Part shown: one piece after another, positions 1,773-39,600 of the stretch
Numbering within the stretch: the stretch's first letter is position 1
Layout: every line of letters starts with the position of its first letter
NCBI GenBank assembly: GCA_043228905.1
Contig: JBHGNT010000016.1
Location: 4,030,001-4,094,000, forward strand
Length of the DNA stretch: 64,000 nucleotides
Direction: 5' to 3'
From: Azolla caroliniana
Lineage: Eukaryota > Plantae > Polypodiophyta
Notes under the pieces: model-generated
Database searches by the model: none
The model's input: only the letters and a program-made list of their open reading frames with translations
Told to the model about the DNA's origin: nothing
Program-made: the position numbers and the translations under genes

Positions 1773-1803
<31 letters not shown>

Positions 1804-11662: not shown

Positions 11663-11735
11663 TGGAGATGCAAGGTATCGATCCCCGTACCTCTCGCATG
11701 CTAAGCGAGCGCTCTACCATTTGAGCTACATCCCC
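11663..11735 (-). tRNA. tRNA-Ala(AGC), A copy
   Basis: Full cloverleaf, A and B boxes, G3:U70, two G-U pairs in T stem; CAA and AT-rich box upstream. Confidence 0.88.
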
Positions 11736-12696: not shown

Positions 12697-12769
12697 TGGA
12701 GATGCAAGGTATCGATCCCCGTACCTCTCGCATGCTAAGCGAGCGCTCTACCATTTGAGCTACATCCCC
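12697..12769 (-). tRNA. tRNA-Ala(AGC), A copy
   Basis: Identical to 11663-11735. Confidence 0.88.
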
Positions 12770-13730: not shown

Positions 13731-13803
13731 TGGAGATGCAAGGTATCGATCCCCGTACCTCTCGCATGCTAAGCGAGCGCTCTACCATTTGAGCTACATC
13801 CCC
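13731..13803 (-). tRNA. tRNA-Ala(AGC), A copy
   Basis: Identical to 11663-11735. Confidence 0.88.
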
Positions 13804-14764: not shown

Positions 14765-14837
14765 TGGAGATGCAAGATATCGATCCCCGTACCTCTCGCA
14801 TGCTAAGCGAGCGCTCTACCATTTGAGCTACATCCCC
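14765..14837 (-). tRNA. tRNA-Ala(AGC), A copy with C61>T B-box variant
   Basis: Plus strand reads gcaagatatcg instead of gcaaggtatcg. Confidence 0.7.
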
Positions 14838-15798
14838 TTTGAAAATGTCAAAATGATACAAATAATTATTTCCTGTGAAACCTATGTGACTTCAGTTACT
14901 AAATAGTGGTTTCGTGTGCACCAATGAATTCTAGTACTCCACATTGTCCTCTTGGTTTCCATGCCTTGTACTGAAATGAAGGATTCATAATATTCCGACT
15001 TCTATGTTTATGGCGTAGTCTTTAATCTAGTTTCACATTCATTTCTTGTTTTGAATGGTGATGGCTTTTTTCTTCGATAGTTCCATGGCACCCTAAAAGA
15101 TTGTGCTTCGATGTTTTCAAGGAGTCCTTGTTGACCTATTACTAGGAATGCCTTCCACTTGAGTCATGTGTTCATCACAATCCTACATTTAGGTTTCTCG
15201 CTTACTCTTTAATTTTGTCGGCTAAGCACTCTCCTATTTAAAAATGATGGCTTAAATCCCTAAAGATGATGGGTATCAAAATAAATGAATTGGAGATGAG
15301 GGGTATCGATCCTCGTACCTCACGGATGCTAATCCAATGTTTTACCATTTATGTTACATCCGCTTTGAGAGTGTTAAAAAGATACAAGTAATTGGTTTCT
15401 GCACTCGAATACGAACGTGAAACCGGTTGTGGCCGGTCGACTCCTAACATCTTCTTAGTTTCTGGCTTACTCTTTAATCTTGTTCTCTGATGATTTCAAG
15501 GACTCCTTGTTGGCCTATTGGTTGGAATGCTTTCCACTTGAGTCATGTCTTTATCATAATCCTACATCTAGATTTCTTGCTTACTCTTTAATTTTGTCCT
15601 GTAAACACGATGATTTCAAGGACTCCTTGTTGGCCTATTGGTTGGAATGCTTTCCACTTGAGTCATGTCTTTATCATAATCCTACATCTAGATTTCTGCC
15701 TTACTCTCTAATTTTGTCCTGTAAACACTGTTCTATTTAAAAAGGATGACTTTAATCCCTAAAGTCAAGATGAAGGGTATCATCTAAGATAAACCAAT

Positions 15799-15871
15799 TG
15801 GAGATGCAAGGTATCGATCCCCGTACCTCTCGCATGCTAAGCGAGCGCTCTACCATTTGAGCTACATCCCC
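15799..15871 (-). tRNA. tRNA-Ala(AGC), A copy
   Basis: Identical to 11663-11735. Confidence 0.88.
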
Positions 15872-16832
15872 TTTGAAAATGTCAAAATGATACAAATAAT
15901 TATTTCCTGTGAAACCTATGTGACTTCAGTTACTAAATAGTGGTTTCGTGTGCACCAATGAATTCTAGTACTCCACATTGTCCTCTTGGTTTCCATGCCT
16001 TGTACTGAAATGAAGGATTCATAATATTCCGACTTCTATGTTTATGGCGTAGTCTTTAATCTAGTTTCACATTCATTTCTTGTTTTGAATGGTGATGGCT
16101 TTTTTCTTCGATAGTTCCATGGCACCCTAAAAGATTGTGCTTCGATGTTTTCAAGGAGTCCTTGTTGACCTATTACTAGGAATGCCTTCCACTTGAGTCA
16201 TGTGTTCATCACAATCCTACATTTAGGTTTCTCGCTTACTCTTTAATTTTGTCGGCTAAGCACTCTCCTATTTAAAAATGATGGCTTAAATCCCTAAAGA
16301 TGATGGGTATCAAAATAAATGAATTGGAGATGAGGGGTATCGATCCTCGTACCTCACGGATGCTAATCCAATGTTTTACCATTTATGTTACATCCGCTTT
16401 GAGAGTGTTAAAAAGATACAAGTAATTGGTTTCTGCACTCGAATACGAACGTGAAACCGGTTGTGGCCGGTCGACTCCTAACATCTTCTTAGTTTCTGGC
16501 TTACTCTTTAATCTTGTTCTCTGATGATTTCAAGGACTCCTTGTTGGCCTATTGGTTGGAATGCTTTCCACTTGAGTCATGTCTTTATCATAATCCTACA
16601 TCTAGATTTCTTGCTTACTCTTTAATTTTGTCCTGTAAACACGATGATTTCAAGGACTCCTTGTTGGCCTATTGGTTGGAATGCTTTCCACTTGAGTCAT
16701 GTCTTTATCATAATCCTACATCTAGATTTCTGCCTTACTCTCTAATTTTGTCCTGTAAACACTGTTCTATTTAAAAAGGATGACTTTAATCCCTAAAGTC
16801 AAGATGAAGGGTATCATCTAAGATAAACCAAT

Positions 16833-16905
16833 TGGAGATGCAAGGTATCGATCCCCGTACCTCTCGCATGCTAAGCGAGCGCTCTACCATTTGAGCTACA
16901 TCCCC
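16833..16905 (-). tRNA. tRNA-Ala(AGC), A copy
   Basis: Identical to 11663-11735. Confidence 0.88.
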
Positions 16906-17866
16906 TTTGAAAATGTCAAAATGATACAAATAATTATTTCCTGTGAAACCTATGTGACTTCAGTTACTAAATAGTGGTTTCGTGTGCACCAATGAATTCT
17001 AGTACTCCACATTGTCCTCTTGGTTTCCATGCCTTGTACTGAAATGAAGGATTCATAATATTCCGACTTCTATGTTTATGGCGTAGTCTTTAATCTAGTT
17101 TCACATTCATTTCTTGTTTTGAATGGTGATGGCTTTTTTCTTCGATAGTTCCATGGCACCCTAAAAGATTGTGCTTCGATGTTTTCAAGGAGTCCTTGTT
17201 GACCTATTACTAGGAATGCCTTCCACTTGACTCATGTGTTCATCACAATCCTACATTTAGGTTTCTCGCTTACTCTTTAATTTTGTCGGCTAAGCACTCT
17301 CCTATTTAAAAATGATGGCTTAAATCCCTAAAGATGATGGGTATCAAAATAAATGAATTGGAGATGAGGGGTATCGATCCTCGTACCTCACGGATGCTAA
17401 TCCAATGTTTTACCATTTATGTTACATCCGCTTTGAGAGTGTTAAAAAGATACAAGTAATTGGTTTCTGCACTCGAATACGAACGTGAAACCGGTTGTGG
17501 CCGGTCGACTCCTAACATCTTCTTAGTTTCTGGCTTACTCTTTAATCTTGTTCTCTGATGATTTCAAGGACTCCTTGTTGGCCTATTGGTTGGAATGCTT
17601 TCCACTTGAGTCATGTCTTTATCATAATCCTACATCTAGATTTCTTGCTTACTCTTTAATTTTGTCCTGTAAACACGATGATTTCAAGGACTCCTTGTTG
17701 GCCTATTGGTTGGAATGCTTTCCACTTGAGTCATGTCTTTATCATAATCCTACATCTAGATTTCTGCCTTACTCTCTAATTTTGTCTTGTAAACACTGTT
17801 CTATTTAAAAAGGATGACTTTAATCCCTAAAGTCAAGATGAAGGGTATCATCTAAGATAAACCAAT

Positions 17867-17939
17867 TGGAGATGCAAGGTATCGATCCCCGTACCTCTCG
17901 CATGCTAAGCGAGCGCTCTACCATTTGAGCTACATCCCC
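17867..17939 (-). tRNA. tRNA-Ala(AGC), A copy
   Basis: Identical to 11663-11735. Confidence 0.88.
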
Positions 17940-18900
17940 TTTGAAAATGTCAAAATGATACAAATAATTATTTCCTGTGAAACCTATGTGACTTCAGTTA
18001 CTAAATAGTGGTTTCGTGTGCACCAATGAATTCTAGTACTCCACATTGTCCTCTTGGTTTCCATGCCTTGTACTGAAATGAAGGATTCATAATATTCCGA
18101 CTTCTATGTTTATGGCGTAGTCTTTAATCTAGTTTCACATTCATTTCTTGTTTTGAATGGTGATGGCTTTTTTCTTCGATAGTTCCATGGCACCCTAAAA
18201 GATTGTGCTTCGATGTTTTCAAGGAGTCCTTGTTGACCTATTACTAGGAATGCCTTCCACTTGAGTCATGTGTTCATCACAATCCTACATTTAGGTTTCT
18301 CGCTTACTCTTTAATTTTGTCGGCTAAGCACTCTCCTATTTAAAAATGATGGCTTAAATCCCTAAAGATGATGGGTATCAAAATAAATGAATTGGAGATG
18401 AGGGGTATCGATCCTCGTACCTCACGGATGCTAATCCAATGTTTTACCATTTATGTTACATCCGCTTTGAGAGTGTTAAAAAGATACAAGTAATTGGTTT
18501 CTGCACTCGAATACGAACGTGAAACCGGTTGTGGCCGGTCGACTCCTAACATCTTCTTAGTTTCTGGCTTACTCTTTAATCTTGTTCTCTGATGATTTCA
18601 AGGACTCCTTGTTGGCCTATTGGTTGGAATGCTTTCCACTTGAGTCATGTCTTTATCATAATCCTACATCTAGATTTCTTGCTTACTCTTTAATTTTGTC
18701 CTGTAAACACGATGATTTCAAGGACTCCTTGTTGGCCTATTGGTTGGAATGCTTTCCACTTGAGTCATGTCTTTATCATAATCCTACATCTAGATTTCTG
18801 CCTTACTCTCTAATTTTGTCCTGTAAACACTGTTCTATTTAAAAAGGATGACTTTAATCCCTAAAGTCAAGATGAAGGGTATCATCTAAGATAAACCAAT

Positions 18901-18973
18901 TGGAGATGCAAGGTATCGATCCCCGTACCTCTCGCATGCTAAGCGAGCGCTCTACCATTTGAGCTACATCCCC
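18901..18973 (-). tRNA. tRNA-Ala(AGC), A copy
   Basis: Identical to 11663-11735. Confidence 0.88.
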
Positions 18974-19934
18974 TTTGAAAATGTCAAAATGATACAAATA
19001 ATTATTTCCTGTGAAACCTATGTGACTTCAGTTACTAAATAGTGGTTTCGTGTGCACCAATGAATTCTAGTACTCCACATTGTCCTCTTGGTTTCCATGC
19101 CTTGTACTGAAATGAAGGATTCATAATATTCCGACTTCTATGTTTATGGCGTAGTCTTTAATCTAGTTTCACATTCATTTCTTGTTTTGAATGGTGATGG
19201 CTTTTTTCTTCGATAGTTCCATGGCACCCTAAAAGATTGTGCTTCGATGTTTTCAAGGAGTCCTTGTTGACCTATTACTAGGAATGCCTTCCACTTGACT
19301 CATGTGTTCATCACAATCCTACATTTAGGTTTCTCGCTTACTCTTTAATTTTGTCGGCTAAGCACTCTCCTATTTAAAAATGATGGCTTAAATCCCTAAA
19401 GATGATGGGTATCAAAATAAATGAATTGGAGATGAGGGGTATCGATCCTCGTACCTCACGGATGCTAATCCAATGTTTTACCATTTATGTTACATCCGCT
19501 TTGAGAGTGTTAAAAAGATACAAGTAATTGGTTTCTGCACTCGAATACGAACGTGAAACCGGTTGTGGCCGGTCGACTCCTAACATCTTCTTAGTTTCTG
19601 GCTTACTCTTTAATCTTGTTCTCTGATGATTTCAAGGACTCCTTGTTGGCCTATTGGTTGGAATGCTTTCCACTTGAGTCATGTCTTTATCATAATCCTA
19701 CATCTAGATTTCTTGCTTACTCTTTAATTTTGTCCTGTAAACACGATGATTTCAAGGACTCCTTGTTGGCCTATTGGTTGGAATGCTTTCCACTTGAGTC
19801 ATGTCTTTATCATAATCCTACATCTAGATTTCTGCCTTACTCTCTAATTTTGTCTTGTAAACACTGTTCTATTTAAAAAGGATGACTTTAATCCCTAAAG
19901 TCAAGATGAAGGGTATCATCTAAGATAAACCAAT

Positions 19935-20007
19935 TGGAGATGCAAGGTATCGATCCCCGTACCTCTCGCATGCTAAGCGAGCGCTCTACCATTTGAGCTA
20001 CATCCCC
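19935..20007 (-). tRNA. tRNA-Ala(AGC), A copy
   Basis: Identical to 11663-11735. Confidence 0.88.
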
Positions 20008-20968
20008 TTTGAAAATGTCAAAATGATACAAATAATTATTTCCTGTGAAACCTATGTGACTTCAGTTACTAAATAGTGGTTTCGTGTGCACCAATGAATT
20101 CTAGTACTCCACATTGTCCTCTTGGTTTCCATGCCTTGTACTGAAATGAAGGATTCATAATATTCCGACTTCTATGTTTATGGCGTAGTCTTTAATCTAG
20201 TTTCACATTCATTTCTTGTTTTGAATGGTGATGGCTTTTTTCTTCGATAGTTCCATGGCACCCTAAAAGATTGTGCTTCGATGTTTTCAAGGAGTCCTTG
20301 TTGACCTATTACTAGGAATGCCTTCCACTTGAGTCATGTGTTCATCACAATCCTACATTTAGGTTTCTCGCTTACTCTTTAATTTTGTCGGCTAAGCACT
20401 CTCCTATTTAAAAATGATGGCTTAAATCCCTAAAGATGATGGGTATCAAAATAAATGAATTGGAGATGAGGGGTATCGATCCTCGTACCTCACGGATGCT
20501 AATCCAATGTTTTACCATTTATGTTACATCCGCTTTGAGAGTGTTAAAAAGATACAAGTAATTGGTTTCTGCACTCGAATACGAACGTGAAACCGGTTGT
20601 GGCCGGTCGACTCCTAACATCTTCTTAGTTTCTGGCTTACTCTTTAATCTTGTTCTCTGATGATTTCAAGGACTCCTTGTTGGCCTATTGGTTGGAATGC
20701 TTTCCACTTGAGTCATGTCTTTATCATAATCCTACATCTAGATTTCTTGCTTACTCTTTAATTTTGTCCTGTAAACACGATGATTTCAAGGACTCCTTGT
20801 TGGCCTATTGGTTGGAATGCTTTCCACTTGAGTCATGTCTTTATCATAATGCTTTCCACTTCTAGGATTCTGGCTTAGTCTTTAAGTTAGTCTGGTAAAC
20901 ACTCTTCTATTTAAAAAGGATGACTTTAATCCATAAAGTCAAGATGAAGGGTATCAAGATAAACCAAT

Positions 20969-21950
20969 TGGAGATGCAAGGTATCGATCCCCGAACCTCT
21001 CGCATGCTAAGCGAACGCTCTACCATTTGAGCTACATACTTTGACAATGTCAAAATGATACAAATAATTATTTCCTGATGAAACCTATGTGACTTCAGTT
21101 ACTAAATAGTGGTTCTGCGTGCACCAATGAATTCAAGGACTCTAGATTGTCCTCTTATTTTCCATGCCTTCTACTAAAATCAAGGATTCATAATAATCCT
21201 AGTTCTATGTTTCTGGTGTACTCTTTAATCTAGTTTCACATTCATTTCTTGTTTTGGATGATGATGGCTTTTTTCTTTTATAGTTCCATGGCACACTAAA
21301 ATATTGGGTTCTGATGTTTTCAAGGTGTCTTTGTTGACCTATTACTAGGAATGCCTTCCACTTGAGTCATGTATTCATCACAATCCTACATTTAGGTTTC
21401 TGTCTTACTCTTTAATTTTGTCCGCTAAGCACTCTCCTATTTAAAAATGATGGCTTTAATCCCTAAAGATGAAGGTTATCAAAATAAACCAATTGGATAT
21501 GAGGGGTATTGATCCTCGTACCTCACGCATGCTAATCTAGTGTTTTACCATTTATGTTACATCCGCTTTGACAGTGTTAAAAAGATACAAATAATTGGCT
21601 TCTACACACGAACACGAACGTCAAACCGGTTGTGGCCAGTCGACTCCTAACATCTTCTTGGTTTCTGGCTTACTCTTTAATCTTGTTCTTTGATGATTTC
21701 AAGTACTCCTTGTTGGCCTATTGGCTGGAATGCTTTCCACTTGAGTCATGTCTTCATCACAATCCTACTTCTAGGATTATGGCTTACTCTTTAATCTCGT
21801 CTGGTAAACACTCTTCTATTTAAAAAAGATGACTTTAATCCATAACGTCAAGATGAAGGGTATCATGATAAACCATTTGGAGATGAAGGGTATCGATTCC
21901 CATACCTCTCGCATGTTAAGTGAGCGCTCTACCATTTGAGCTATATCCCC
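20969..21950 (-). pseudogene. Right-flank diverged tRNA-Ala copies: 20969-21039, 21494-21566, 21878-21950 (last has anticodon AAC)
   Basis: Same body with acceptor deletion, B-type decay and anticodon change respectively. Confidence 0.8.
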
Positions 21951-22793
21951 TTTGACAATGTCAAAATGATACAAATAATTATTTCTTGATGAAACCTATG
22001 TGACTTCAATTAGTAAATAGTGGTTCCGCGTTGTTGCGTTTCTACGCGCGTGCGTGGAGAAACGAGGCGGGACCACCGGGGTCTTGGACCGAAGAACACG
22101 TGATAGGAAGGGAAAGAGAAAGAGAGAGACGACCGGTAACGTATGAGCAAGAAACACAGGGACACGGCCCGTCAATGCAGAAAACACGAATGGACATAGA
22201 GATAGAGAGACACGAATGTTTGTATATTAACAGATGACACCAAAAACAACAGAGCACGCGAGCGGTTACAACCGAACAGGCCGGCGAACAGATACCGATG
22301 CCTGCTCGTCTGCGCACGAAAGAGGATTGGATGGAGGTGCGGTCGGAAGCACACGGGCATTCCTCGAAGCAGCGCGAGCCTCCCGAAATCCTGCAGAGAA
22401 GAGTGACGGAGAATGAACAGAGGAGAAGCGTTCGGTTACAGTCTGACAGCACTTCGTCCTCCTCAATACGCGATACCTTTCTCCCTGCGTCTCCCTCTCC
22501 TTTATAGCGTCAAGAAGGGAGCCGTCTCCCTCATTTACTTCCTACCTACCGAATCTAACTACCCAGGATATGCCTTTGTACTTAATTCCCTATTATATAC
22601 ATTGAAAGGCATGCACATGCGAAGAGCCGGTTCACGCGCGCTATGTACCGTTTGCGGCAAGGGACGGTTTTCTTCACAACATCCGCCCCCACCTAACCGT
22701 GCATCTACCGGTGTGCGCCAAAATTGCACTCTGGTTGGAGAAAACCGTTCCGGGTTCCGGTTCCTCGTTCATCGGTTCGTCCCCCGTCTCGGA

Positions 22794-25700
22794 CTATTCG
22801 TCGTCGTTGTCCAGGCCTCTTAGATCGGGTTTGCTGTCGTGGCGCTTCTTGAACGCTTTGATCCGCTTCCCTGCTACCGGTATCACCATCCTCGTACCGT
22901 CGAGTTCCGCCAGGTGATACGTCCCGTTGTCGTTGGCGCTCGTTACCACGTAAGGCCTGAACCACCGCTTTGCAAACTTCCGTGTTGCCCTATGCTGGTT
23001 GTCGAGGCTGTTGTCGTAAACTAGCACCCAGTCGCCTTCCTCGATTTTCTTTGGTTGGAGCCGGTGGGTTCGGTCGAACCGGGCTTTGTTCTTGATCCTC
23101 GCCGTCCGAAGTCTCTCCACCGCTCGTTCCACGTCCTCTGGCCTCCGCTCGAGCTGCCATATACGCGCGACTAGCAGTTCTTCCCGACTCATCTCGTCTC
23201 TCCAGTCTACTGTCGCCCAAGAGGAGATCGTCCGTTCCATCGGCATGATCGGTTTCTGTCCGAACATGAGCTCTGACGGCATGAACTCGGTTACCGAACT
23301 GTGCGTTGTTCGGTCCGCCCACAAGGCATAAGGTAACAGCCGTGGCCAGTTCCCGAACTGGCCTCTGCATGCTCGGACTAGCGCTTTGACGATCGGTCCG
23401 TGTCCGCGCTCCACCTTCCCGTTCGCCTCCGGATTGTACGCTGTGGTGAGCGAGAGCTTGACCCCTAACCAGTCGAATAGCTCCTCGGCCTCTTCAGCGT
23501 CCAACTCACCGCGGTCAGCCACGATCTTCCCGACGCACCCGTACCGGCATATCACGTCGTCGATCCGGAACCGACACACGGCCGCGGTCGTTTTGTTCTG
23601 CAGGGCTCGGCCTTCCACCTGGTTCGTCAGGTCCTCCCGGGCCAGCACCAGATATCGCATCTGCCCTACGCCCATCGGCATCGTCACCAAATCTACCATC
23701 CATTTGAAATGGATGGCCGGAGGGTAAGTAGGGTGAAGCTCATCCCGATGTCGGACTATGGAGTGCATCTGACAGCTCTCACAAGTTGTCACGAACCGAT
23801 GCACGTCCCGATACAGTCCTGGCCACCAGTACTTCCCCTTCAGTTTCTCGAACGTGGCCCACGTCCCATGGTGTCCAGCCCAGGGGCTGTCGTGGTAGGC
23901 CTTCAGCAACTCCTCCTGCTCCTCCTTCATCGCCACTACTCGGAGCGGGATGCCGCTTCTCTTCTTCGGGTGCTTCCATAAGTATCCGTCCCGGAGAAAG
24001 AATCAGTATGCTTTCTTCCGGATCCGGTTGGCCTCGTTCTTTGTCCATGATGCGTCCGACGTCATCGTCGTCAAGAATCCTACAATCTGCAGCCACTCCC
24101 CATCGTACTTGCTTTCGTTAAAATCGTTAAGCGCCTGAGTGCTTCCCCCCTCGGTTGTTACGTAAGCCGCCTCAAAGAAGTCCACGCCGACTTACTCGTC
24201 CTCCGAAACCATGCCGCCCTCGTCGTCGAATCGCGCCCTCGAAAGCATGTTGGCCATGGCATTGTCTTTCCCAGAAATGTGTCGTATTTCCGGATCCAGA
24301 GACTTGATGTACGCTATCCACCTGAGCATTGCCAGGTCCGGGGTTGCGCATCCGGAAACCATGCCGAGAATCGGCAGGCAGTCCGTCTCGATAATCACCT
24401 CTGTCCCGATCAGATAGTCTTTATCGGCCTTCACCGCCGAAACGATACCCCAGAGTTTGCGTTTAACTTGGGCGTATCCTCGCTGTCGCTCGCTGAGGAC
24501 CTTCGCACCGAACCGGATTGGGAACTGAATGCCATCCTCATCTTCTTGGTTGACGACCCATCCGATCCCGGTCGGACTTGTATCTACCGTTATGTAGATG
24601 GGAGTACCTTTCTCGTAGACAGCCTTTCGGAGTGCCGAAGCTGCAGCAAGAGCCGCCTTCATCTTTCGGACCGACTCCATGTGCTCGTCTCGCCACTCAA
24701 ATTTGCACCCCTTTTTCAGCAACCCGTATAGCGGCTCGGCAACGTGGGCGTAATGCGGGATCCATATGTGGTAGAACGCGCATGCTCCCAAGAACCTCCG
24801 TACCTCCGTGACCGAGTTACAATCGGGCTTCATTGCGGAGATGGCTTCCTCTTTAGCCGGAGACGGTTTCCAGCCATACGGTCCTCATAGATGTCCGACG
24901 ACCATGATCTCTGATTGCCCGAAGGCCGATTTCTCCCCGGAGAAGGTGAGCCTCGCGTCCTCTAGCCTCTGCAGCACCCTCTCGCAGTCGTCAATGTGTG
25001 TCGCCACGAATTTCCGGCATCCGTCCGGTCCGATCGTTTCGTCCTTTTCCTCCACCGGACACCCCTTGATCGGGATGTGGTCCAAGAATGGCATGGTGAT
25101 GTCCGGGATACAGTCCCTCAGTACCTTGTTCATTGCATTCACCATGTGGGCCACCGAGTTCGTCCCTCCTTGTGGCAGGGTACACATCCGAACTAGGTCG
25201 AGAGGAGTCCGCATCGTCATAATGTCTCTGCTCTCTACGACTAGTTGGAACTGATCGTACCCCGAGAACAGAGCCCCGACCGAGTAGATCGACCTTCCGG
25301 CGAAGGCCTCCACGAACTCGTCTATCGTTGGTCTGATTCCTGCGTTCCGAATGGTCACTCTGTTGACCGGTTGCAGGTCTTGAATGAAGCGCAATGTCCC
25401 GTTCTTCTTCGGTACGGTAAACCACTAGTTCGAGTACGGGGCACTCGACAGTTCGAGAATGCCCATATCGACTTTCTGTCTCAATAGCTCCATGAGCTCC
25501 GGGATGTGAGCTCTCGGTACCGGAATTGGTTTGAGATTCCACGGCACATGCGGTACCGTGAATATCACCATCGGCTTCACGACTGTCGGGTCTACGCACC
25601 TGATCTCTCCTGGTGAGAATGCGACGGCTTTCCCGTGCCTTCCGAGCATTCTCCGAAACCGGTCTTCTTCCGCTGGCAGTAGGAAACCGCCCCCACCGAT

Positions 25701-28308
25701 TTTGAGCTCCCGTAGCGTTCTGTCGGTGAAGGTGTGTCCTAAGTAGGCCGGATCTCGTAAACTGGGGTCCGACACGACCCCCTTGATTCGCAACTCGCTG
25801 CCCTCCGGTAAGGGTGCCGCGACTGGCCTTACCTTCCGGTCCACAGTCTTGTACTTCGTGTTAACCCGGGCCGTCCAATCCGACTCGAGCCCTCGACTGA
25901 AGTCCGCGATGACTTCGTACATCTCTTCTGAACAAACCGGTATCGTCCGGTCCTCTTTAAGGCCCTCTCCGACCACCTCTCGCAGTATTCCCAAGGTATC
26001 GTCGAAGGAGACCGCCTCCACGGCTCCGTTGATTTCCTCGTTGGGCCCGAGAACTCCGAACGCCCGAAGTCGCTTTTCTACCCTTGTCTTTTCTCGGCCT
26101 ACGATGCCGACTATCGTACGCCCTCTGTTGTCGGAGAAACAAAACTTCCTACTTATGGTACAAGGTTTCTTCGGTTTCGCTTCTATCGTACATTTGTGGG
26201 GTTTTCCCGGAGTGTCCGGACTGTCGTGGCCCCACGCCTTGGCAGCCCTCTCTAAAAATCCTCTCGGTTCTCGCCACCGAGGGACTCGTGGTTTCGCTCG
26301 TGGTTCGGTCACACCGTCAGGAACTGGACCGAATGACGCCCGTCCTGACTCTTGACCCTCGCGTAAGCCGACCCGTTGTCCAGCACCTTGGTCTCCATTC
26401 GCGCTGCCGTTATGTACGGTTCTCCCAGTATGACCAGGTGCGAGGACGTCTCCTGCACAAAGAAGTGTTGGTCTATCTCGACATCGCCGATCTTGACTCG
26501 CACGTTTGGGCAAGCCCCGTGTAGTTCCTCGGTGGCGCGCGTCGCCGCCCGTATCTTCCACCCGTGCTTAGTGTTGATCGGCCATTTCCCCTTCTTGTAG
26601 AAGTCCATGGACATCAGGTTTATTTCCGAACCGTGGTCCACTAGCGCCACCACCGGTTCCTGAACATCTCCGATCTTCACCGGGGTTTCTGTGGTCGCTC
26701 GGGCCCAGTCTGGCCTCGAATAGTGGCTCTCCGCCCACTCGTCTTCCAGCGCCATGTCCTCTATGTGCGTTGTCCGCACCTCCACCGGCCTTTCCAGTTC
26801 TGCCTTCGTCAACAGCCTCTTCCTCTTCACCAAGTCCACGATGGAGTCGTGGAACTCCTGCTTGGCGATTCCGAGCACCTCCGGCAACGACAGTTCCACT
26901 TTGCTGTCGAGGATTCGTTCTTCCAGGACCTTTCGTAGGTCCGTGGTCCTTTCGATCTCCGTGCCCAAACGGTACCCGCCCTTCTTTTGGTTATCCGGGG
27001 CACTGGACTCACCGGCCTCGTTCCATTTCGGCCCATATCGGGTTTCGTATCTCTGTGAGGGTCCGGCCCCTCCAGTTTTACCTACTCGTTTGTCTTCAAC
27101 CAGAGCCTCGTAGTTCTGGCAAGCTGCTTCGACGAAACCCGTCTTTTCTTCGACCGGGTCACTCCACCCGGTTACCTCCTGGACCCGCTTCTCCGTGCGG
27201 TCCGCCTGGTCTCTCTTTAGTCGGGCACCGGCGAGGCCTTCCAACACCGTCGGCCAGAACCCGGCTTTGCTCTCCTTCCGGGCCTCGCTGCCTCCAACCG
27301 GAATACCGGCTGACACTAGGTAGTGGACGGTCTCCGCGTGCCGGGTTGCCGCCTCTTCCATCAGCCTTTTCATTCCTCCTCGCCCGTCGTTTCAGTTCAG
27401 GGTCCTCCGGGTATCGCTGGCGTGCACCCGACCTTCCCACAGGTACACTACCCGGCTTCTCAAAGCCTCCATAAAGTCCCCGCAGTCTTTCCGGATGTGG
27501 CCGACCTCGTCGCACCACATGCACCTACTTCCTGCCGGCGGCCGTCGGTCACGAGCCTGATCGCCGCCTTCCCTCCGAGCCTGGGCGATCTGGAGATCCT
27601 TTACCGCTCGTCTCAACTCCTCCAAAGCTGTTCCCCCGGATGAGCCTCTGACCACGCCGGTCGAAGCCGAACCGGTTTCGAGCCACTCCCGGGTCTCTTC
27701 CCTTTGCACCTGCAGTATCAGTTCGAGCTTCCTTGTTGCGACAGGTCCCGCCCCGGTCGCCTCTGTATTAGCCCACTCCCACCGTTTGTCAAAACGGCCG
27801 CAGACTCTTTTTACTGCGGCCCAGTCGGCCGTCAGCCCGTCTTCGGTTTCCAGTAAGGAGCCAACTTGCCCCCGATCCCGTGCGTTAACCGATTTGACAA
27901 ACAATAGGACACGACTTGTGTCCAGAATGGTCCGATCGAGCGCTGAAAGGCACGCAAAGTGTTCCTCAAACTCCCAGAGGAGTACCGACGCATTTCTTCC
28001 TTTGTTGGGGGACTCCACCCACTCCATGAAGCCCCACTTCGAAAGTCGAAGCGCGTCATCCAGCCCGTATTTCTCCAGGAGCCGTCCTTCGAACTCCTCC
28101 CAGGTCCGGCTCTCTGCCCGGACTTCGAGCACCTCCGCATGGATGCCGGGCATCGCCACTCGAGGGAATCCGGCAAGACCCCTCTCTTCCGGAATATCCC
28201 TCATCAACATCTCCGCCCGGTAGGATGCCAAATAACTCGTGGCATCCTTTCCACTAAACCGGCCGATCATACCGACGATCGCCTCAATAGCCCTGTCAAG
28301 GGCGTCGG
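22794..28308 (-). pseudogene. Gypsy A gag-pro and pol remnants
   Basis: Fragments 27392-28321 (gag), 26309-27373 (protease), 24885-26561 (RT), 24192-24833 (RNase H), 22794-23936 (integrase). Confidence 0.9.
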
Positions 28309-31300
28309 TGTTGGGAATCAACGCTTCGATTCACCTTCTTCACTCAGCCACAACCGAGTAAGCGCGAATCAATGGAGCAGAAAATAGGAACCACAAAGAG
28401 AAACAAAACGCGAACACACAGGGATTAACGTGGAAAACCCTAGACGGGAAAAACCACGGGAGTACAGGACTCCAAACTAACACTATACAGAGAAGTATAC
28501 AATGGCGAGCTGCAAGGCGACGACCTTGAGCTCGCTGTCCTCGCCACAGGAGGCGGAAATACAAAGAGGCGTCGTCCTCTTCCTCTCTCACGCTCTATCT
28601 CTCTCTCTCTCTCACGGTTGCTCCCTCTTCACTCCTCTTGAGTGGAAAAACAGAAAAAATGATTAGCAACAACAAAGCTGTTTGCCCTAAGTCATATTTA
28701 TACATATATGACTTTGGGGCTATTTACAACTATAGCCTCAGGGGCCCATAGCGAACATATTCACGGATATGTCCCTGCATCCGGATCGCTCTCCGGGTAC
28801 ATTCGTCATCCGGCACCGAAGCCGGGGTCTTCAACATCCGGATCCGAAACCGAAACCGGGCTCGTCGGCTTTCATCTCCGACATCCGACCATCCCATCTG
28901 AAGGGATCATAATCCCAACAAACTCCCCCTTCACTTCGGCATGGGATGTCTTTCCAATCCGATCCTCTTCCGGCATGCTTCCAGCTTGTCGGGTGTGAGG
29001 ACCTTGGTCAGCATATCCGATCCGTTCTCGTCCGTGTGGATCTTTGTCAGCACGAACTCCTTGTCTTCTATCCTTTCCCGGATCCAGTGATATCTTCGCT
29101 GGATGTGCTTCGTCCGGGAGTGATAGGCCGCGTTCTTAGCAAGGTGGATTGCACTCTGACTGTCACAGTAGAGTCGGTACTCCTCCTGCCGGATACCGAG
29201 CTCTCTAATGAAGTCCTTCATCCATATTACTTCCTTGCCGGCTTCAACAGCCGCCATGTACTCTGCCTCCGTAGTTGACAACGCAACCGTCTTCTGCAGT
29301 CTCGACTGCCATGAAACAGCTCCCCCTGCATACGTCATCACATACCCTGATGTGGACCGGCTGGTATCTGCATCAGCCGACATATCCGAATCGGTAAAGC
29401 CGTCGAGTTCGGGCTTACCGGAGCCGAATCGGAGGCACACATTTGTCGTGCCCTTCAGGTATCGGAGTATCCACTTGGCCGCGTTCCAATGCTCTTTGCC
29501 GGGATTGCTCATGTACCGGCTCACCACTCCGACTGCATATCCGATGTCCGGTCTCGTACACACCATGGCGTACATCAAGCTCCCGACAACTGAGGCATAC
29601 GGCACTTTCATCATATCCTCCTTTTCAGTCTTTGTCTTGGGACTTTGCTTGCTGGACAGTTTGCAGTTTTCCGGGAGGGTCGATCCGACCGGTCTTGCTT
29701 CCGACATGTTGAACCGGTGAAGCACCTTCGTCACGTACTTCTCCTGTGACAGCCACAACTGCTTCTTCTTCCGGTCCCGGATGATGTGCATCCCTAGTAT
29801 TTGCCTCGCCGAACCCAAGTCCTTCATTGAGAAGGTTCGGTGAAGAGCCTTCTTCAGCATCCGTATCTTGACCTGGTCCCGTCCGACGATCAACATGTCG
29901 TCCACGTACAGGAGGAGTATTAGGAAGTCTCCTCCTTCGAACTTCTTCACAAACACGCAGTGGTCGGACTGCGTTTTGAGGTACCCTTCGTCGGTCATGA
30001 AGGAGTCGAATTTCCGGTACCATTGCCGGGGAGCCTGCTTCAGTCCGTAAAGGCTCTTCTTCAACCGGCATACCAGGTGCTCCTTCCCTTTCTTCTCGAA
30101 TCCTTCCGGTTGCTGCATGTAGATCTCTTCATCGAGGTCACCGTGAAGGAATGCCGTCTTCACGTCCATCTGTTCTACCTCGAGGTCCATGCTTGCCGCT
30201 ATGCTCAGCACCGTCCGGATGGAGGTCATCTTCACTACCGGGGCAAATATCTCGTCGAAGTCGACGCCCTTCTTCTGCTGAAACCCCTTCACCACGATCC
30301 TGGCTTTGTATCTCGGGGGGTTTCCGGCATCTCCCGGTTTCAGCTTGAACACCCACTTGTTTCGAAGTGCCCGCTTTCCTTTCGGCAACTCCACAAGTTC
30401 ATATGTGTGGTTCTCATGCAGGGAATCCATCTCGTCCTGCATGGCACTCAACCACCTGCGGCTCTGGGTGTCGTGCTTTGCTTCTTCAAAGCTCTCCGGC
30501 TCCCCCTCGTCGGTTAGCAGCATGTGCTCTGGGTCTGGAAATCTCCGGGGGGCCCTCCTCTCTCTTAGAGGATATCTCCGTTCGGGAGCTTCGGTAACCG
30601 GTTCTTCCGATTCTTCTTCTTCATCCGAATCCATTTCGGGATCGGGGCCGGTTCCGGTATCATTTTCATCTTCTTCGGCCGGTTCTGTTTCTTCACCGTC
30701 TTCGGCCGGATCCTCGAGTGCTAACCGGTCCCTTGCCGGTCGGGACTGCTCCTCATAAAGTTGATCCTCACCGGTTGACTTGCAGCTCTTCATCTTCTTC
30801 TCCGACTCCCAGTCGGCGAGTGTCTTGTTCTCCATGAAGATGATATCACGACTCCGGAATATCTTCTTGTCAACCGGGTCCCATACTCGGTAGCCGAACT
30901 CGTCATCGTCGTAACCGAGGAATATGCATGGCCGGGTCTTTGGATCTAGCTTTCCTCTCCGGTCCTTTGCCACATGCACGTATGCGAGACACCCGAACAC
31001 CTTCAGATGCCGGTAGGACACTTCCTTACCGGTCCACACTTTCTGCGGCGTGTCTCCGTCCAAAGGTACTGAGGGTGATCTGTTTATCACGTATGTCGCC
31101 GTCGACATTGCCTCAGCCCAAAACCCCTTGGGTAATTTCGCATGCGCCAGCATACTCCGGACCCTCTCCATTATGGTCCGGTTCATCCTCTCAGCCAGCC
31201 CGTTCAGTTCCGGCGTCTTCGGCACAGTAAACTCGAGTCGGATTCCCTTCGAGCGACAGTACTCCTGGAACTGCCCCCGGTATTCCCCTCCGTTATCCGC

Positions 31301-33649
31301 TCGTATCGCTTTCAGCTTCTTGCCGGATTCCCTTTCCACTCTCGCGTGGAGTTCTTTGAAGACGCACAACACTTGGTCCTTTGTCTTCATCGGTGCCGTC
31401 CACAATTTTCGGCTATGATCATCGATGAATGTTACGAAGTACTGGGCTCCGCCATGTGACTTCGTTTCTACCTGACACACATCAGTGTGCACCAACTCCA
31501 ATGGTGCGCTACGTCTCGTCGGTGGCCTTGAGTGGAAGGAGGTTCGGTTCTGCTTACCGGCCAGGCAATCGGTGCACTTCTCCAGGTGCACATGCTTCAC
31601 TGGGATAAGGTTGTCTTCTGCAAGCCTCTTCATCCCCTTCTCACTCATGTGGCACAGTCTTTTGTGCCACAGCTCACCGGCAGTGTCGGCTGCCACATTC
31701 AGCTCTTCCGGACATAACCGGGCATTCATCAGGTACAGTGTGTTGTCTTTCCGGGCCCGAGCCACTATCAGGCTCCCCTTGCTGAACTTCATTACGCCGT
31801 TCCGGATGCTACCTGTGTAGCCTTCATCGTCTAGCCTCCCGGCCGAAATCAGGTTCAATCGAACCTCCGGAACGTGTCGGACATCCTTCAGCAGCATTTT
31901 GCATCCGGTCGGGGTTGTCAACCACACGTCTCCTATGCCGGCAATCCGGCACGTACCTTCATTTCCCATCCGAACACAGCCATGCTCACCGGCTGTGTAG
32001 GATGAGAAGTATCTTCTCTCCGGGGTCAGGTGGAACGATGCTCCGGAATCGACCACCCAAGTCGTCTCATCGCCGGCAACGTTTAGTTCACCTTCTTCGG
32101 TGATGAGCATGATTTCTTCCTCACTTGCCGCGAGTGCCGTTGTTCCTTTCCGGTCCTGCCCTCGCCGATCCGAACCTCTCCAGTCTGTGGCTCCCCGGTA
32201 TGCACCGTTTCTCTCCGGTGACTTCTTCGAATCGGTGTCGTCGGCTCCGTTGTCTTTTCGGTAATGCCGACAATTCTTTCGGAAGTGCCCCGGTTTCCCA
32301 CAGTGGAAGCATGTGGGCCTTCCTCTTGACTGCGACCGGGTCCCCGACTTCTCCCGTCTTTGCGGACTCCGGTTCCATTGTCTTCCCCGATCCGATTCGG
32401 TAAGCAGCGCCTTCGGGTCGGAGGCCGGTTCTTTATCTCTCCGACGCGCTTCTTCGTTCAAAATACTTGTCTTTACCGTTTGCAAGGACAAGTTATCTTC
32501 TGTGCAGGAGGTGCTGAGAGTCACCACCAAGTTCTCCCAGCTTTCCGGCAATGTACACATCAGGATGATGGCTTGCATTGCATCCTCCAACGGGAACTTG
32601 ATCGCCGCAAGCTGATTCACGAATCCCATGAACGTGCTTACGTGTTCCACCATACTCTCGCCGTCCCGGTACTTGAGATTCACTATCTTCCTCATCAGGG
32701 AGGTCCGGTTCAACGCATTTTTCCTCTCGTAGAGGCCCGACAGCTTCTTCCACATCTCATATGCGTTGGTGTCGTTCGCCACATGTTGTAGGACGCTTAC
32801 ATCGACATATTGTCGGATCGTCGCTACGGCTTTCCGGTTCAGGAGCTTCCACTCCGACTCAAGTACCCCCTTCGGTATTTCCGACCTGTCAATCGGTTCA
32901 TACAGGTCCCGAACAATCAGAAGATCCTCCATCTTGATCTTCCAGTCGGCGTAATTCTGCGCATTCAGCACCATCATCCCCGGCTGCCCGCTGCCGCCGC
33001 CTTCCATTTTCTGCAGCAGTTCGCTCTGATACCAGTTTGTTGGGAATCAACGCTTCGATTCACCTTCTTCACTCAGCCACAATCGAGTAAGCGCGAATCA
33101 ATGGAGCAGAAAATAGGAACCACAAAGAGAAACAAAACGCGAACACACAGGGATTAACGTGGAAAACCCTAGACGGGAAAAACCACGGGAGTACAGGACT
33201 CCAAACCAACACTATACAGAGAAGTATACAATGGCGAGCTGCAAGGCGACGACCTTGAGCTCGCTGTCCTCGCCACAGGAGGCGGAAATACAAAGAGGCG
33301 TCGTCCTCTTCCTCTCTCACGCTCTATCTCTCTCTCTCTCTCACGGTTGCTCCCTCTTCACTCCTCTTGAGTGGAAAAACAGAAAAAATGATTAGCAACA
33401 ACAAAGTTGTTTGCCCTAAGTCATATTTATACATATATGACTTTGGGGCTATTTACAACTATAGCCTCAGGGGCCCATAGCGAACATATTCACGGATATG
33501 TCCCTGCATCCGGATCGCTCTCCGGGTACATTCGTCATCCGGCACCGAAGCCGGGGTCTTCAACATCCGGATCCGAAACCGAAACCGGGCTCGTCGGCTT
33601 TCATCTCCGACATCCGACCATCCCATCTGAAGGGATCATAATCCCAACA
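28309..33649 (-). mobile_element. Intact Copia LTR retrotransposon B (Tnt1/Tork-like); LTRs 28309-28920 and 33038-33649
   Basis: 612-bp LTRs differing at ~3 sites; 5-bp TSD GTCGG; iMet PBS TGGTATCAGAGC (33023-33034); PPT at 28921-28930. Confidence 0.97.
28931..33007 (-). CDS. Copia gag-pol polyprotein, 1358 aa
   Basis: Uninterrupted ORF with CCHC knuckle, DSGAS protease, integrase DDE core, RT YVDD and RNase H. Confidence 0.95.
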   Translation of the reverse strand: MEGGGSGQPGMMVLNAQNYADWKIKMEDLLIVRDLYEPIDRSEIPKGVLESEWKLLNRKAVATIRQYVDVSVLQHVANDTNAYEMWKKLSGLYERKNALNRTSLMRKIVNLKYRDGESMVEHVSTFMGFVNQLAAIKFPLEDAMQAIILMCTLPESWENLVVTLSTSCTEDNLSLQTVKTSILNEEARRRDKEPASDPKALLTESDRGRQWNRSPQRREKSGTRSQSRGRPTCFHCGKPGHFRKNCRHYRKDNGADDTDSKKSPERNGAYRGATDWRGSDRRGQDRKGTTALAASEEEIMLITEEGELNVAGDETTWVVDSGASFHLTPERRYFSSYTAGEHGCVRMGNEGTCRIAGIGDVWLTTPTGCKMLLKDVRHVPEVRLNLISAGRLDDEGYTGSIRNGVMKFSKGSLIVARARKDNTLYLMNARLCPEELNVAADTAGELWHKRLCHMSEKGMKRLAEDNLIPVKHVHLEKCTDCLAGKQNRTSFHSRPPTRRSAPLELVHTDVCQVETKSHGGAQYFVTFIDDHSRKLWTAPMKTKDQVLCVFKELHARVERESGKKLKAIRADNGGEYRGQFQEYCRSKGIRLEFTVPKTPELNGLAERMNRTIMERVRSMLAHAKLPKGFWAEAMSTATYVINRSPSVPLDGDTPQKVWTGKEVSYRHLKVFGCLAYVHVAKDRRGKLDPKTRPCIFLGYDDDEFGYRVWDPVDKKIFRSRDIIFMENKTLADWESEKKMKSCKSTGEDQLYEEQSRPARDRLALEDPAEDGEETEPAEEDENDTGTGPDPEMDSDEEEESEEPVTEAPERRYPLRERRAPRRFPDPEHMLLTDEGEPESFEEAKHDTQSRRWLSAMQDEMDSLHENHTYELVELPKGKRALRNKWVFKLKPGDAGNPPRYKARIVVKGFQQKKGVDFDEIFAPVVKMTSIRTVLSIAASMDLEVEQMDVKTAFLHGDLDEEIYMQQPEGFEKKGKEHLVCRLKKSLYGLKQAPRQWYRKFDSFMTDEGYLKTQSDHCVFVKKFEGGDFLILLLYVDDMLIVGRDQVKIRMLKKALHRTFSMKDLGSARQILGMHIIRDRKKKQLWLSQEKYVTKVLHRFNMSEARPVGSTLPENCKLSSKQSPKTKTEKEDMMKVPYASVVGSLMYAMVCTRPDIGYAVGVVSRYMSNPGKEHWNAAKWILRYLKGTTNVCLRFGSGKPELDGFTDSDMSADADTSRSTSGYVMTYAGGAVSWQSRLQKTVALSTTEAEYMAAVEAGKEVIWMKDFIRELGIRQEEYRLYCDSQSAIHLAKNAAYHSRTKHIQRRYHWIRERIEDKEFVLTKIHTDENGSDMLTKVLTPDKLEACRKRIGLERHPMPK

Positions 33650-34770
33650 GTCGGTGCCCTCGCGCGCGCTCACTATCTGGTCCACGGCCGAAGCCATGGC
33701 CTCTGCAAGATCCGACCCCCTCATCTTCTGCTCCTCTGCCGCCTTGTTCACGTCGGGTTCACCAAATATGTCGTGTTGCTACGCGCGTGCGTGGAGAAAC
33801 GAGGCGGGACCACCGGGGTCTTGGACCGAAGAACACGTGATAGGAAGGGAAAGAGAAAGAGAGAGACGACCGGTAACGTATGAGAAAGAAACACAGGGAC
33901 ACGGCCCGTCAACGCAGAAAACACGAATGGACACAGAGACAGAGAGACACGAATGTTTGTATATTAACAGATGACACCAAAAACAACAGAGCACGCGAGC
34001 GGTTACAACCGAACAGGCTGGCGAACAGATACCAATGCCTGCTCATCTGCGCACGAAAGGGGATAGGATGGAGGTGCTGCCGGAAGCACACGGGCATTCC
34101 TCCAAGCAGCGCGAGCCTCCCGAAATCCTACAGAGAAGAGCGACGGAGAATGAACAGAGGAGAAGCGTTCGGTGAAAGTCCGACAGCACTTCGTCCTCCT
34201 CAATACGTGATACCTTTCTCCCTGCGTCTCCCTCTCCTTTATAGCGTCAAGAAGGGAGCCGTCTCCCTCATTTACTTCCTACCTACCGAATCTAACTACC
34301 CAGGATATGCTTTGTACTTAATTCCCTATTATATACATTGAAGGGCGCGCACGCGCGAAGAGCCGGTTCACGCGCGCTATGCACCGTTTGCGCCAAGGGA
34401 CGGTTTTCTTCACGACAGCGTGCACCAATGAATTCATGGATTCCACATTGTCCTATTGATTGCCATGCCTTCTACTCGAATCAAGGTTTCATAACAATCC
34501 TACTTTTATGTTTATGGTGTACTCTTTAATCTAGTTTCACATGCACTTCTTGTTTTTAATGATGTTGGCTTTTTTCCTTGGTAGTTCGATGACATGCTAA
34601 AAGATTGTGCTCCAAAGGTTTCATGGACTCCTTGTTGGCCTATTGCTTGGAATGCCTTCCGCTTGAGTCATTTCTTCATAACAACCCTATTGCTAGGTTT
34701 CTGGCCTTTACTTTAATTTTGTCCCCTAAGCATTGTCCTATTTGAAAATGATGGGTTTAATCAATAGTGA

Positions 34771-36593: not shown

Positions 36594-36677
36594 TTTCACA
36601 ATGTTAAATAGAGTATAGTAAGAATTGTTTTTTCATGAGAGTTCAAGGAAATAGTGGTTCCATGTGCACCAATGAAT

Positions 36678-39600
36678 TGAAGTGGATGGTCGGAGGGTAC
36701 GTAGGGTGAAGCTCGTCCCGATGTCGGACTACGGAGTGCATCTGACAGCTCTCGCAAGTCGTCACGAACCGATGCACATCCCGATACAGTCCCGGCCACC
36801 AGTACTTCCCCTTTATCTTCTCGAACGTGGCCCACGTTCCACGGTGTCCAGCCCAAGGGCTGTCGTGGTAGGCCGTCAGTAGCTCCTCCTGTTCTTCCTT
36901 CATCGCCACCACCCGGAGCGGGACGCCGTTCCTCTTCTTCGGGTGCTTCCATAAGTATCCGTCCCGGAGAAAGAATCGGTAAGCTTTCTTCCGGATCCGG
37001 TTGGCCTCGTCCTTCGTCCATGACGCATCCAGCGTCATTGTCCTCAAAAATCCACCGATCTGGAGCCACTCGCCATCGTACCTGCTCTCGTCGAAGTCGT
37101 TAAGTGCCGGAGTGCTCATCCCATCCCTTGAAGAAGTCCACGCCGACTTCTTCGTCCTCCGAAACCATGCCGCCCTCGTCATCAAACCTCGCCCTCGAAA
37201 GCATGTCGGCCATGGTGTTGTCCTTTCTGGAAATGTGTCGTATTTCCAGGTCCAGGGACTTGATGTACGCTATCCACCGGAGCATCGCCAAGTCCGGTGT
37301 CGCGCACCCGGAAACCATGCCGAGAATCGGCAGGCAATCCGTCTCGATAACCACTTCTGTCCCGATCAGGTAGTCTTTGTCAGCCTTTACTGCCAAAACG
37401 ATACCCCAGAGTTCACGTTTAACCTGGGCGTACCCTCGCTGTCGTTCACTGAGGACCTTCGCGCCGAATCGGATCAGGAACCGAATGCCGTTCTTGTCCT
37501 CTTGGTTGACGACCCATCCGATCCCGGTCGGACTCGTATCCACTGTTATGTATACCGGGGTACCCTTCCCGTAGACAGCCTTCCTGAGCGTCGGTGCTGC
37601 CGCAAGAGCTTCCTTCAGCTTCCGGACCGACTCCGTGTGCTCGTCTCGCCACTCGAATTTTCGCCCTTTCTTCAGCAACCCGTATAGCGGCTCCGCAACG
37701 TGGGCGTAATGCAGGATCCATATGTGGTAGAATGCACATGCCCCCAGGAACCTCCGAACTTCCGTAACCGAGCTACAGTCGGTCTTCATCGCGGAGATGG
37801 CTTCTACCTTTGCCAGAGACGGCTTCCGACCATATGGTCCACATAGGTGTCCGACCACCAGGATTTCCGATTGCCCGAAGGCCGATTTCTCCCCGGAGAA
37901 GGTGAGCCTCACATCCTCTAGCCTTTGTAGCACCTTCTCGCAGTCGTCGATGTGTGTTGCCACGAATCGCCGGCATCTGTCCGGTCCGAGTGTTGCGTCC
38001 CTCTCTTCTACCGGGCACCCCTTGATCGGAATGTCGTCTAGAAATGGCACGGTGATGTCCGGGATGCAATCCCTCAGTACCTTGTTCATTGCATTCACCA
38101 TGTGGGCCACCGAGTTGGTCCCTCCTTGTGGCAGGGTACACATTCGCACTAGGCCGAGGGGAGTTCGCATCGTCGTAATGTCTCTGCTCTCCACGGCTAG
38201 CTGGAACTGGTCGTACCCCGAGTATAGATCACCGACCGAGTAAATCGACCTTCCGGCGAAGGCCTCCGCGAACTCGTCTATGGTCGGTCCGATTCCTACG
38301 TTCCGAATGGTCACTCTGTTGACCGGCTGCAGGTCCTGAATGAAGCGCAATGTTCCGTTTTTCTTTGGTACGGTAAACCATCGGTTCGAGTATGGCGCGC
38401 TCGACGGTTCGAGAATACCCATATCGACTTTCTGCCTCAGTAGCTCCATCAACTCCGGGATGTGAGCTCTTGGTACCGGAATCGGCTTGAGATTCCACGG
38501 CACATGCGGTACCGTGAATATCACCATCGGCTCCACAATTGTCGGGTCTACGCACCCGATCTCTTCCGGCGAGAATGTGAAGGCTTTCTCGTGCCTTCCG
38601 AGCATTCTCCGAAACCGGTCTTCCTCCGCCGGCAGTAGGAACCCGCCCCCACCGATCTTCAGCTCCCAGAGCGTCCCGTCGGTGAAGGTGTATCCTATGC
38701 AGGCCGGATCTCGTAAACTGGGGTCCGACGCCACCCCTCTGATTCGGGACTCGCTGCACTCCGGCAAGGGTGCCGCGACTGGCCTTACCTTCCGGTCCAC
38801 AGTCTTGTACTTCGTGCTAACTTGGGCCGTCCGATCCAACCCGAGCCCCCGACTGAAGTTCGCGATGACTTCGTACATCTCTTCGGAACATACCGGTATC
38901 GTCCGGTCTTCGTTAAGGTCTTCTCCGGCTACCTTCCTCAACATTCCCAAGGTGTCGTCGAAGGAGACCGCCTCCACTCATCTGCCAGCGCCGAGTCGTC
39001 GATGTGGGTCGTCCGCACCTCCACCGGTCTTTCCGGTTCCGTCTCCGTCGACAGCCTCTTCCGTTTCACCAAGTCTACAATGGAGTCGTGGAACTCCTTC
39101 TTGGCGATCCCTAGCACCTCCCGCAATGACAGCTCCACTTTGCTGTCGAGGATCCGTTCTTCTAGGACCTTTCGTAGGTCCGTAGTCCTTTCTATTTCCG
39201 TCCCCAGTCGGTATCCGCCCTTCCTGGGGTTATCTTGCGAGCTGGACCCACCGGCATCGTTCCGTCGCTGCCCGAATCGGGTCTCGTACCGTTGTGAGGG
39301 CCCGGCCGCTCCGGCTTTCCCCGCTCGTTTGTCTTCTACCAGAGCCTCGTAGTTCCGACAGGAGGCTTCTACGAAGCCCGTCTTCTCCTCGACCGGGTCG
39401 CTCCACCCGGTTACTTCCCGGACCCGTCTCTCAGCGCGGTCCGTTTCATCTTTGCTCAGCCGTGCGCCAGCGAGGCCTTCCAGCATTGCCGACCAGAAAC
39501 CTTCTTTGCTCTCCTTTCGGGCCTCGCTGCCCCCGACCCGAATACCAGCCGACGCCGAGTAGTGGATGGCCTCCCCATGTCGGGCCGCTGCCTCTTCCAT

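Follow-up and report, generated by a model that had tools for sequence, protein, structure and literature searches.

The slippery heptamer in RCNMV, the red clover necrotic mosaic virus, is exactly GGAUUUU, and the gag/pol shift of animal and fungal Gypsy elements and of PEG10 is located before the protease. GGAUUUU is also a tested site of PEMV that works on plant ribosomes, and in RCNMV the stop codon follows the slip site directly (PMC4737148); a stop at or near the slip site was reported to raise efficiency in these plant viruses (PMC4737148, PMC5009743). The G_GA triplet is described as an exception to the X XXY YYZ heptamer rule (PMC5009743). Among plant retrotransposons, REXdb lists Tcn1 and Selgy with GAG overlapping PROT-RT, i.e. 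with the break before the protease, and gives breaks after the protease solely as a spacer or a stop (Ogre, Retand); its lineage table contains no plant lineage in which GAG-PROT overlaps RT (PMC6317226 Additional file 5). For the non-chromovirus lineage Phygy the same file records a 4-bp duplication of the NCGN type and a tRNA-Trp primer, with the ORF organisation not determined. Most plant LTR elements are described as single-ORF or splicing-dependent (PMC5580714, PMC12786077), and a 2003 survey, as summarised in PMC5009743, reported no plant cases other than +1 ones. The excess of Gag over RT in plant LTR elements still calls for an explanation. A -1 shift after the protease of a plant retrotransposon was not found in the accessible parts of the literature searched; subscription papers, Repbase and the tables of fungal Ylt1-like elements (supplements of PMC2864245) could mention one.

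The Gypsy element and its junction in the window

The window analysed here is a stretch of 64,000 nucleotides from Azolla caroliniana (contig JBHGNT010000016.1, positions 4,030,001 to 4,094,000 of the forward strand). It contains on its minus strand an LTR retrotransposon with the following features.

33769 to 34417, minus strand: 5' LTR of 649 bp, identity to the 3' LTR about 95%
22032 to 22681, minus strand: 3' LTR, 650 bp, partner of the 5' LTR
33747 to 33764, minus strand: 18-nt primer binding site that pairs with the 3' end of the host tRNA-Trp, CCA included
34418 to 34421 and 22031 to 22028, minus strand: target site duplication ACGC, 4 bp, NCGN type, from one element only
26252 to 33724, minus strand: ORF1, gag (CCHC knuckle, DUF4100) and protease, interrupted by stops and an inserted Copia element
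28309 to 33649, minus strand: nested Copia element in gag, with a 5-bp duplication and LTRs 99.5% alike
26330 to 26680, minus strand: ORF1-terminal aspartic protease domain of the retropepsin type, with D-H-G at 26638-26630, from profile and Pfam
22794 to 26261, minus strand: ORF2 in the -1 frame, a spacer of about 130 residues followed by RT, RNase H and integrase, with four internal stops

The LTRs, the primer site and the domain order GAG-PR-RT-RH-IN are those of Ty3/Gypsy. The ACGC duplication of the NCGN type on both sides, observed in one element, and the tRNA-Trp primer site are marks of Phygy. The length is 7,040 bp without the Copia element, below the 7.7-10.0 kb given for Phygy in REXdb, a range that derives from one moss species and is therefore a weak guide. 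Because of this size the element is called only Phygy-like, on the strength of its duplication and primer marks. Homologues exist in Physcomitrium and carry no lineage label. In the Pfam scan a chromodomain was absent, and apart from a weak RVT_3 match there was no second RNase H; no env was seen in the element. The tRNA-Trp 3'-end motif that corresponds to the primer has 64 matches genome-wide, many of them about 0.9-1.2 kb apart, with dense clusters at G000:C8:17.80-17.82 Mb, C16:4.99-5.11 Mb and C5:10.11 Mb; four other loci that were checked are tRNA-Trp genes.

In-frame stops of ORF1 are found at 27394-27392 and 26311-26309. With stops in both ORFs and the Copia insertion in gag, this copy is dead and just keeps the signal of its family. 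The nested Copia has a fully open frame of 1,371 codons and is a young element. A profile of 26 family members matches the domain before the heptamer to DDI1, ASPRV1 and the Ty3 Gag-Pol protease; Pfam aspartyl-protease families were matched by 13 of the 26 members, while the first member scanned matched none. As the active-site triplet of the protease, the plant clade has D-H-G and distant members have D-S/D/N/G/P/Q/E/T-G, in place of the usual D-T/S-G.

Several other features were observed in the window. A second Gypsy copy of the same family (36596-41205, minus strand) is missing about 0.7 kb, comprising the whole protease and the junction cassette, and its deletion junction shows a short GTGG microhomology. 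A tandem array at approximately 10500-22000 consists of about ten near-identical units with a period of 1,034 bp; the units are built from shorter, related AT-rich repeats, which reach towards 4 kb and recur beyond the 5' LTR of the Gypsy element. Two diverging LINE copies are located at 50656-54405 (plus strand) and 44860-48609 (minus strand), one with an open endonuclease-RT frame of 1,249 codons and the other broken by stops. The multi-exon host gene at 385-2790 (minus strand) has a heme motif in its translation and is presumably cytochrome P450-like.

The junction between the two ORFs, together with a second copy elsewhere in the window, is composed as follows.

26255 to 26261, minus strand: slippery heptamer G GAU UUU (GGATTTT), in phase with ORF1, read from the sequence
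26252 to 26254, minus strand: UAG stop of ORF1 (Gag-protease), directly 3' of the heptamer, read from the sequence
26241 to 26248, minus strand: 5' arm of pseudoknot stem 1, starting 6 nt past the heptamer
26230 to 26235, minus strand: 5' arm of pseudoknot stem 2, GTGGGG, inside the stem-1 loop, from the own-versus-cross pairing test and per-locus folds
26218 to 26225, minus strand: 3' arm of pseudoknot stem 1, from the alignment and genome copies
26196 to 26201, minus strand: 3' arm of pseudoknot stem 2, CCCCAC, beyond a variable linker (16 nt here) after stem 1
55935 to 56000, plus strand: second, decayed cassette of the A-U subfamily, GGATGTT, inside a deleted Gypsy remnant

An earlier note, made from the letters alone, had proposed a -1 frameshift site with an H-type pseudoknot at this junction. 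All the letters it gave for the heptamer, the UAG, the stem arms and the loop are present on the minus strand within the interval it named. The RT-RH-IN frame lies at -1 relative to the protease frame and is open across the site, where it reads GFLERAAK as the note had translated it. The second copy, which is on the plus strand, carries GGATGTT and GGGCTATC/GGTAGTCT with stem 2 unchanged, in agreement with the note. Stem 1 stands where it was placed and is longer than described, 8 bp in the family; its pair 7 is a C-A mismatch in the window copy. Between the two copies, the reported change from G-C to A-U is real and proved to be a fixed subfamily difference instead of a single-copy feature: over 90 genome loci, pair 6 is G-C in 42, A-U in 39, G-U in 7, and unpaired or other in 2. 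The mismatch at pair 7 is shared by 31 of these 90 loci, the window copy among them. A search of Rfam over 26000-26500 returned no family at E up to 10, and no relative was found in the viral contigs searched. Judged by eye, the remnant at 55363-56700 (plus strand) has gag fused to the protease by a deletion and continues into an apparent RT fragment of the Copia type.

Frame break and heptamer in genome copies and relatives

The cassette motif has 1,925 matches in the Azolla genome and its reversed control pattern has none, so the cassette is more than chance. The -1 offset is kept in all 30 of the nearest genome copies; chance decay of a single ORF was considered and rejected because the offset is conserved, both in these copies and in the relatives described below. 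The heptamer is intact in 30 of 30 nearest copies and in 22 of 30 older ones, the latter found with the 55935-56000 copy as query; a further 30 loci from the motif search were preselected on the heptamer and are excluded from the heptamer counts. The CCCCAC arm is conserved in 56 of 60 genome copies, and the linker is variable.

A metagenome scan yielded 80 loci, 48 of them with both protease and RT; the 32 others, for the most part contigs that are short or truncated, have no protease match. In 43 of the 48, at RT identities of 37-94%, the two frames overlap cleanly at -1 past the protease. Two are single ORFs, which sit among the distant rows of the tree described below, and three are broken or joined differently, with the heptamer still visible in two of these three. 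One continuous ORF in intact members, the outcome that the earlier note had named as fatal to its proposal, is thus not what the relatives with long open frames show. The family alignment that it had suggested as a check agrees with it as well: an in-phase heptamer occurs in 43 of the 43 relatives with a clean overlap, and both stems covary in the 22 close ones. The distance from heptamer to ORF1 stop is 0-18 nt, with the stop at 0 nt in 22 of the 43; at the heptamer rate found elsewhere in ORF1, 2.9 such loci would be expected. Nine heptamer types, all of a valid slippery kind, were counted, namely GGATTTT (23), GGTTTTT (6), AAATTTT (3), GGGAAAA (3), GGATTTC (2), GGGTTTT (2), TTTAAAA (2), GAATTTT (1), and CCCAAAA (1), with G_GA and G_GU accepted as first triplets, plus G_AA for one locus, added after inspection. 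In several metagenome loci the ORFs overlap by only 10-16 nt, so that a shift would be confined to the heptamer, with little room elsewhere.

Slippage of RNA polymerase or RT on the T-run, adding a base in some transcripts, is hardly credible as the source of the second frame. Five T in a row do stand at the site, and one old copy (L045) has a lengthened run. However, the run is short, relatives swap in A-runs, the downstream RNA knot is conserved at ribosome spacing, and no indels at the slip site were listed in three low-depth polyA RNA runs. These runs belong to one study and were read against two subfamily references, with about 10-20 reads per run; the reads derive from copies 85-99% similar and from both strands.

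The ends of Gag-protease proteins agree with a break at the heptamer. Among 119 Gag-protease homologues, some of them proteins of a moss, a liverwort and a fern (Physcomitrium, Riccia and Adiantum by name), D/G/N-F stands at the very end in 71 and 5-6 residues from the end in 26 more (97 of 119 in all, against a background of 0.6% per position). One of the 119 is identical to the query, and most of the 20 misfits are annotated gene models. The counts among relatives do not represent independent events, since the loci are related and some form near-identical pairs (L095/L096, L105/L106, L160/L166).

Several annotated Riccia proteins have Gag and RT joined in one gene model, as they would be if an intron between protease and RT were spliced from some transcripts, fusing the frames as in Ogre. 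These models look like gene-prediction bridges; P0016 gives this impression because its protease tail is absent. In 43 of 48 loci the -1 frame runs without a stop from the heptamer into RT; with an intron there would be no need for this, and splicing would leave the in-phase heptamer unexplained. No splice joints across the junction were seen in the three polyA runs, which at their low depth is weak evidence. Splicing is considered very unlikely. An equally small probability is given to separate translation of ORF2 by reinitiation, internal entry or a subgenomic RNA, with the structured RNA serving that purpose. Close relatives do have an in-frame ATG upstream of the RT core, and Tyl3 is described as having separated ORFs without a frameshift (PMC5014426). 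The first in-frame ATG of ORF2 is, however, unconserved among relatives (codon 3 to 228), whereas the heptamer is fixed in phase and distance, and no clustered RNA starts were seen in the three low-depth runs.

The predicted pseudoknot

The pseudoknot finder used here is simple and was designed after the sequences had been viewed. In close loci, defined by an RT identity of 56% or more, it returned the same H-type geometry with a score of at least 31 in 22 of 22, as compared with 3.9% of random positions. Ten of 21 distant loci pass the finder by a shuffle test, 8 of 21 reach the same score, and 7 score zero. The seven that score zero (L141, L142, L143, L146, L157, L159, L163) keep the heptamer and the -1 overlap, and their branch may use another stimulator.

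Covariation was determined on a structure-blind alignment of the 22 sequences, with relatedness ignored. Stem 1 is paired in 89.8% of cells, with changes in both partners at 6 of its 8 pairs. Over the structure as a whole, not one of 500 shuffles attained the paired fraction, the count of two-sided cells or the covariation score; the number of pairs with two-sided changes was attained by 43 of 500. When the partner arms were slid, pairing fell from 78% to 32-52%. At fixed alignment columns 62.9% of stem 2 is paired; as linkers differ in length this figure is too low, and stem 2 was therefore tested without regard to register. In that test the loops paired better with their own downstream arms (score 349) than with permuted partners (298 +/- 11; p 5e-5), and the comparison gave p 0.0016 on 11 distinct loop types, relatedness being ignored. 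Compensated examples of stem 2 are GCAGGA/TCCTGC, GCGGGA/TCTCGC, and TGCGGGG/CCCCGCA. The protein in the -1 frame is highly variable over the stems among relatives; amino-acid constraint therefore does not explain the stems and was rejected as the source of their conservation.

The nested fold of the window copy is no more stable than shuffles (z -0.31) and includes local hairpins that would compete with stem 2. That nested folding yields no sign of unusual stability (z -0.31 and 0.17) is what a pseudoknot would lead one to expect. The inner GGC/GCC helix and the GGG-AAAA-CCC hairpin that nested folding proposes were rejected as the conserved fold, as they are not kept in relatives. The pseudoknot draws its support from conservation and covariation, the nested fold by itself being unremarkable. 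The predicted structure begins 6 nt past the heptamer, inside the 5-9 nt typical of a frameshift cassette, and is supported by covariation. It could also be that frameshifting is real and the pseudoknot serves mainly in RNA dimerisation or packaging, or that stem 1 alone stimulates; the SARS pseudoknot also mediates dimerisation (PMC5009743), and the distant subgroup that keeps the heptamer fails the finder in 11 of 21 loci. Against this stand a spacer kept near 6 nt and covariation of both stems, seen in 22 of 22 close loci as well as in a distinct distant branch; the reading is rated slightly less probable still than splicing or separate translation of ORF2, and above slippage on the T-run.

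The RT-RH tree has 59 rows, is midpoint-rooted and gives no order of events. The window family falls in a clade of 25 rows (support 100/100) together with Riccia and Adiantum proteins, and all clean loci of this clade that the tree contains carry both heptamer and knot. The knot is also carried by a distant branch with A-run heptamers. In the branch near an Acaulospora protein the heptamer is kept and the knot is mostly absent. The named distant homologues are fungal (Acaulospora, Podosphaera, Smittium; approximately 38-44% identity), and a fungal origin of the distant loci is therefore likely. The comparisons at sequence level demonstrate for the family a two-ORF layout with the break after the protease, a -1 offset, an in-phase heptamer, an adjacent stop, and covarying stems.

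Proposed mechanism and comparison with known systems

From this layout we infer programmed -1 ribosomal frameshifting, and the junction very probably works in this way, yielding a minor Gag-PR-Pol fusion with RT, RNase H, and integrase. The steps follow the established model of -1 frameshifting. The majority of ribosomes would terminate at the UAG, setting Gag-protease free. A smaller share, held up by the pseudoknot that starts 6 nt downstream, would slip with tRNA-Asp and tRNA-Phe from GAU UUU to GGA UUU and go on reading as ...EDF-LERA... Inside the spacer of about 130 residues, or close to it, the protease would afterwards release RT and integrase by cleavage. With most ribosomes stopping at the UAG, the protease would be as abundant as Gag, and the element would face the same control problem as the avian retroviruses.

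We lean, with moderate confidence, towards the broader view that a lineage of mosses, liverworts, ferns, and fungi reached the split into Gag-protease and RT-IN under a -1 frameshift pseudoknot independently of the alpharetroviruses. If this view is right, no pseudoknot-driven -1 frameshift would have been described earlier for nuclear retrotransposons of plants, and the gene layout of Phygy, listed as undetermined, would be settled. The cassette is short and testable, with dozens of natural compensatory variants; one genome holds about two thousand copies, and protein ends point to its presence in the model moss as well. The findings further suggest that gene predictors may span the site by inventing introns, and that intact members of this lineage would escape scans in which a frameshift counts as damage.

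The -1 frameshift mechanism is textbook; the new part, within the literature searched, is its position after the protease in a plant retrotransposon. The element resembles Phygy in its duplication, its primer, a coding region that fills the interior, and homologues in Physcomitrium, as far as Phygy is described in PMC6317226; it differs in its length of 7.0 kb, against 7.7-10.0 kb, and in having homologues also in Riccia and Adiantum. In Ogre and Retand (Tat) the break is a spacer or intron or an in-frame stop, and these elements carry aRH and extra ORFs (PMC6317226), whereas the break described here is an overlap in the -1 frame, with no joints in the low-depth RNA reads, and so not of the GAG-PROT type of Ogre/Retand. 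Animal and fungal Gypsy elements and PEG10 are described with a heptamer and an H-type pseudoknot as well, but with the shift between gag and pol (PMC5009743). PEMV2, RCNMV and BYDV share a heptamer of the GGAUUUU type, a stop 0-3 nt after it and a spacer of 5-6 nt (PMC4737148). The likeness to RCNMV drawn in the earlier note holds for the heptamer and fails for the stimulator: as described, theirs is a bulged hairpin whose pairing spans kilobases, whereas the H-type knot predicted here is local and complete within about 60 nt. The same note's comparison with the alpharetroviruses is borne out, since the protease lies in ORF1 as in RSV/ASLV (PMC12789967). Those viruses are described with the protease alongside Gag, one -1 shift into RT-IN, and a pseudoknot as stimulator (PMC12789967, PMC5009743). 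The present element is a plant Gypsy with no env seen and a heptamer that is mostly G GAU UUU. Its knot is a compact one of two stems, where that of RSV has a third stem, and a long spacer precedes RT. The likeness to alpharetroviruses is likely convergent.
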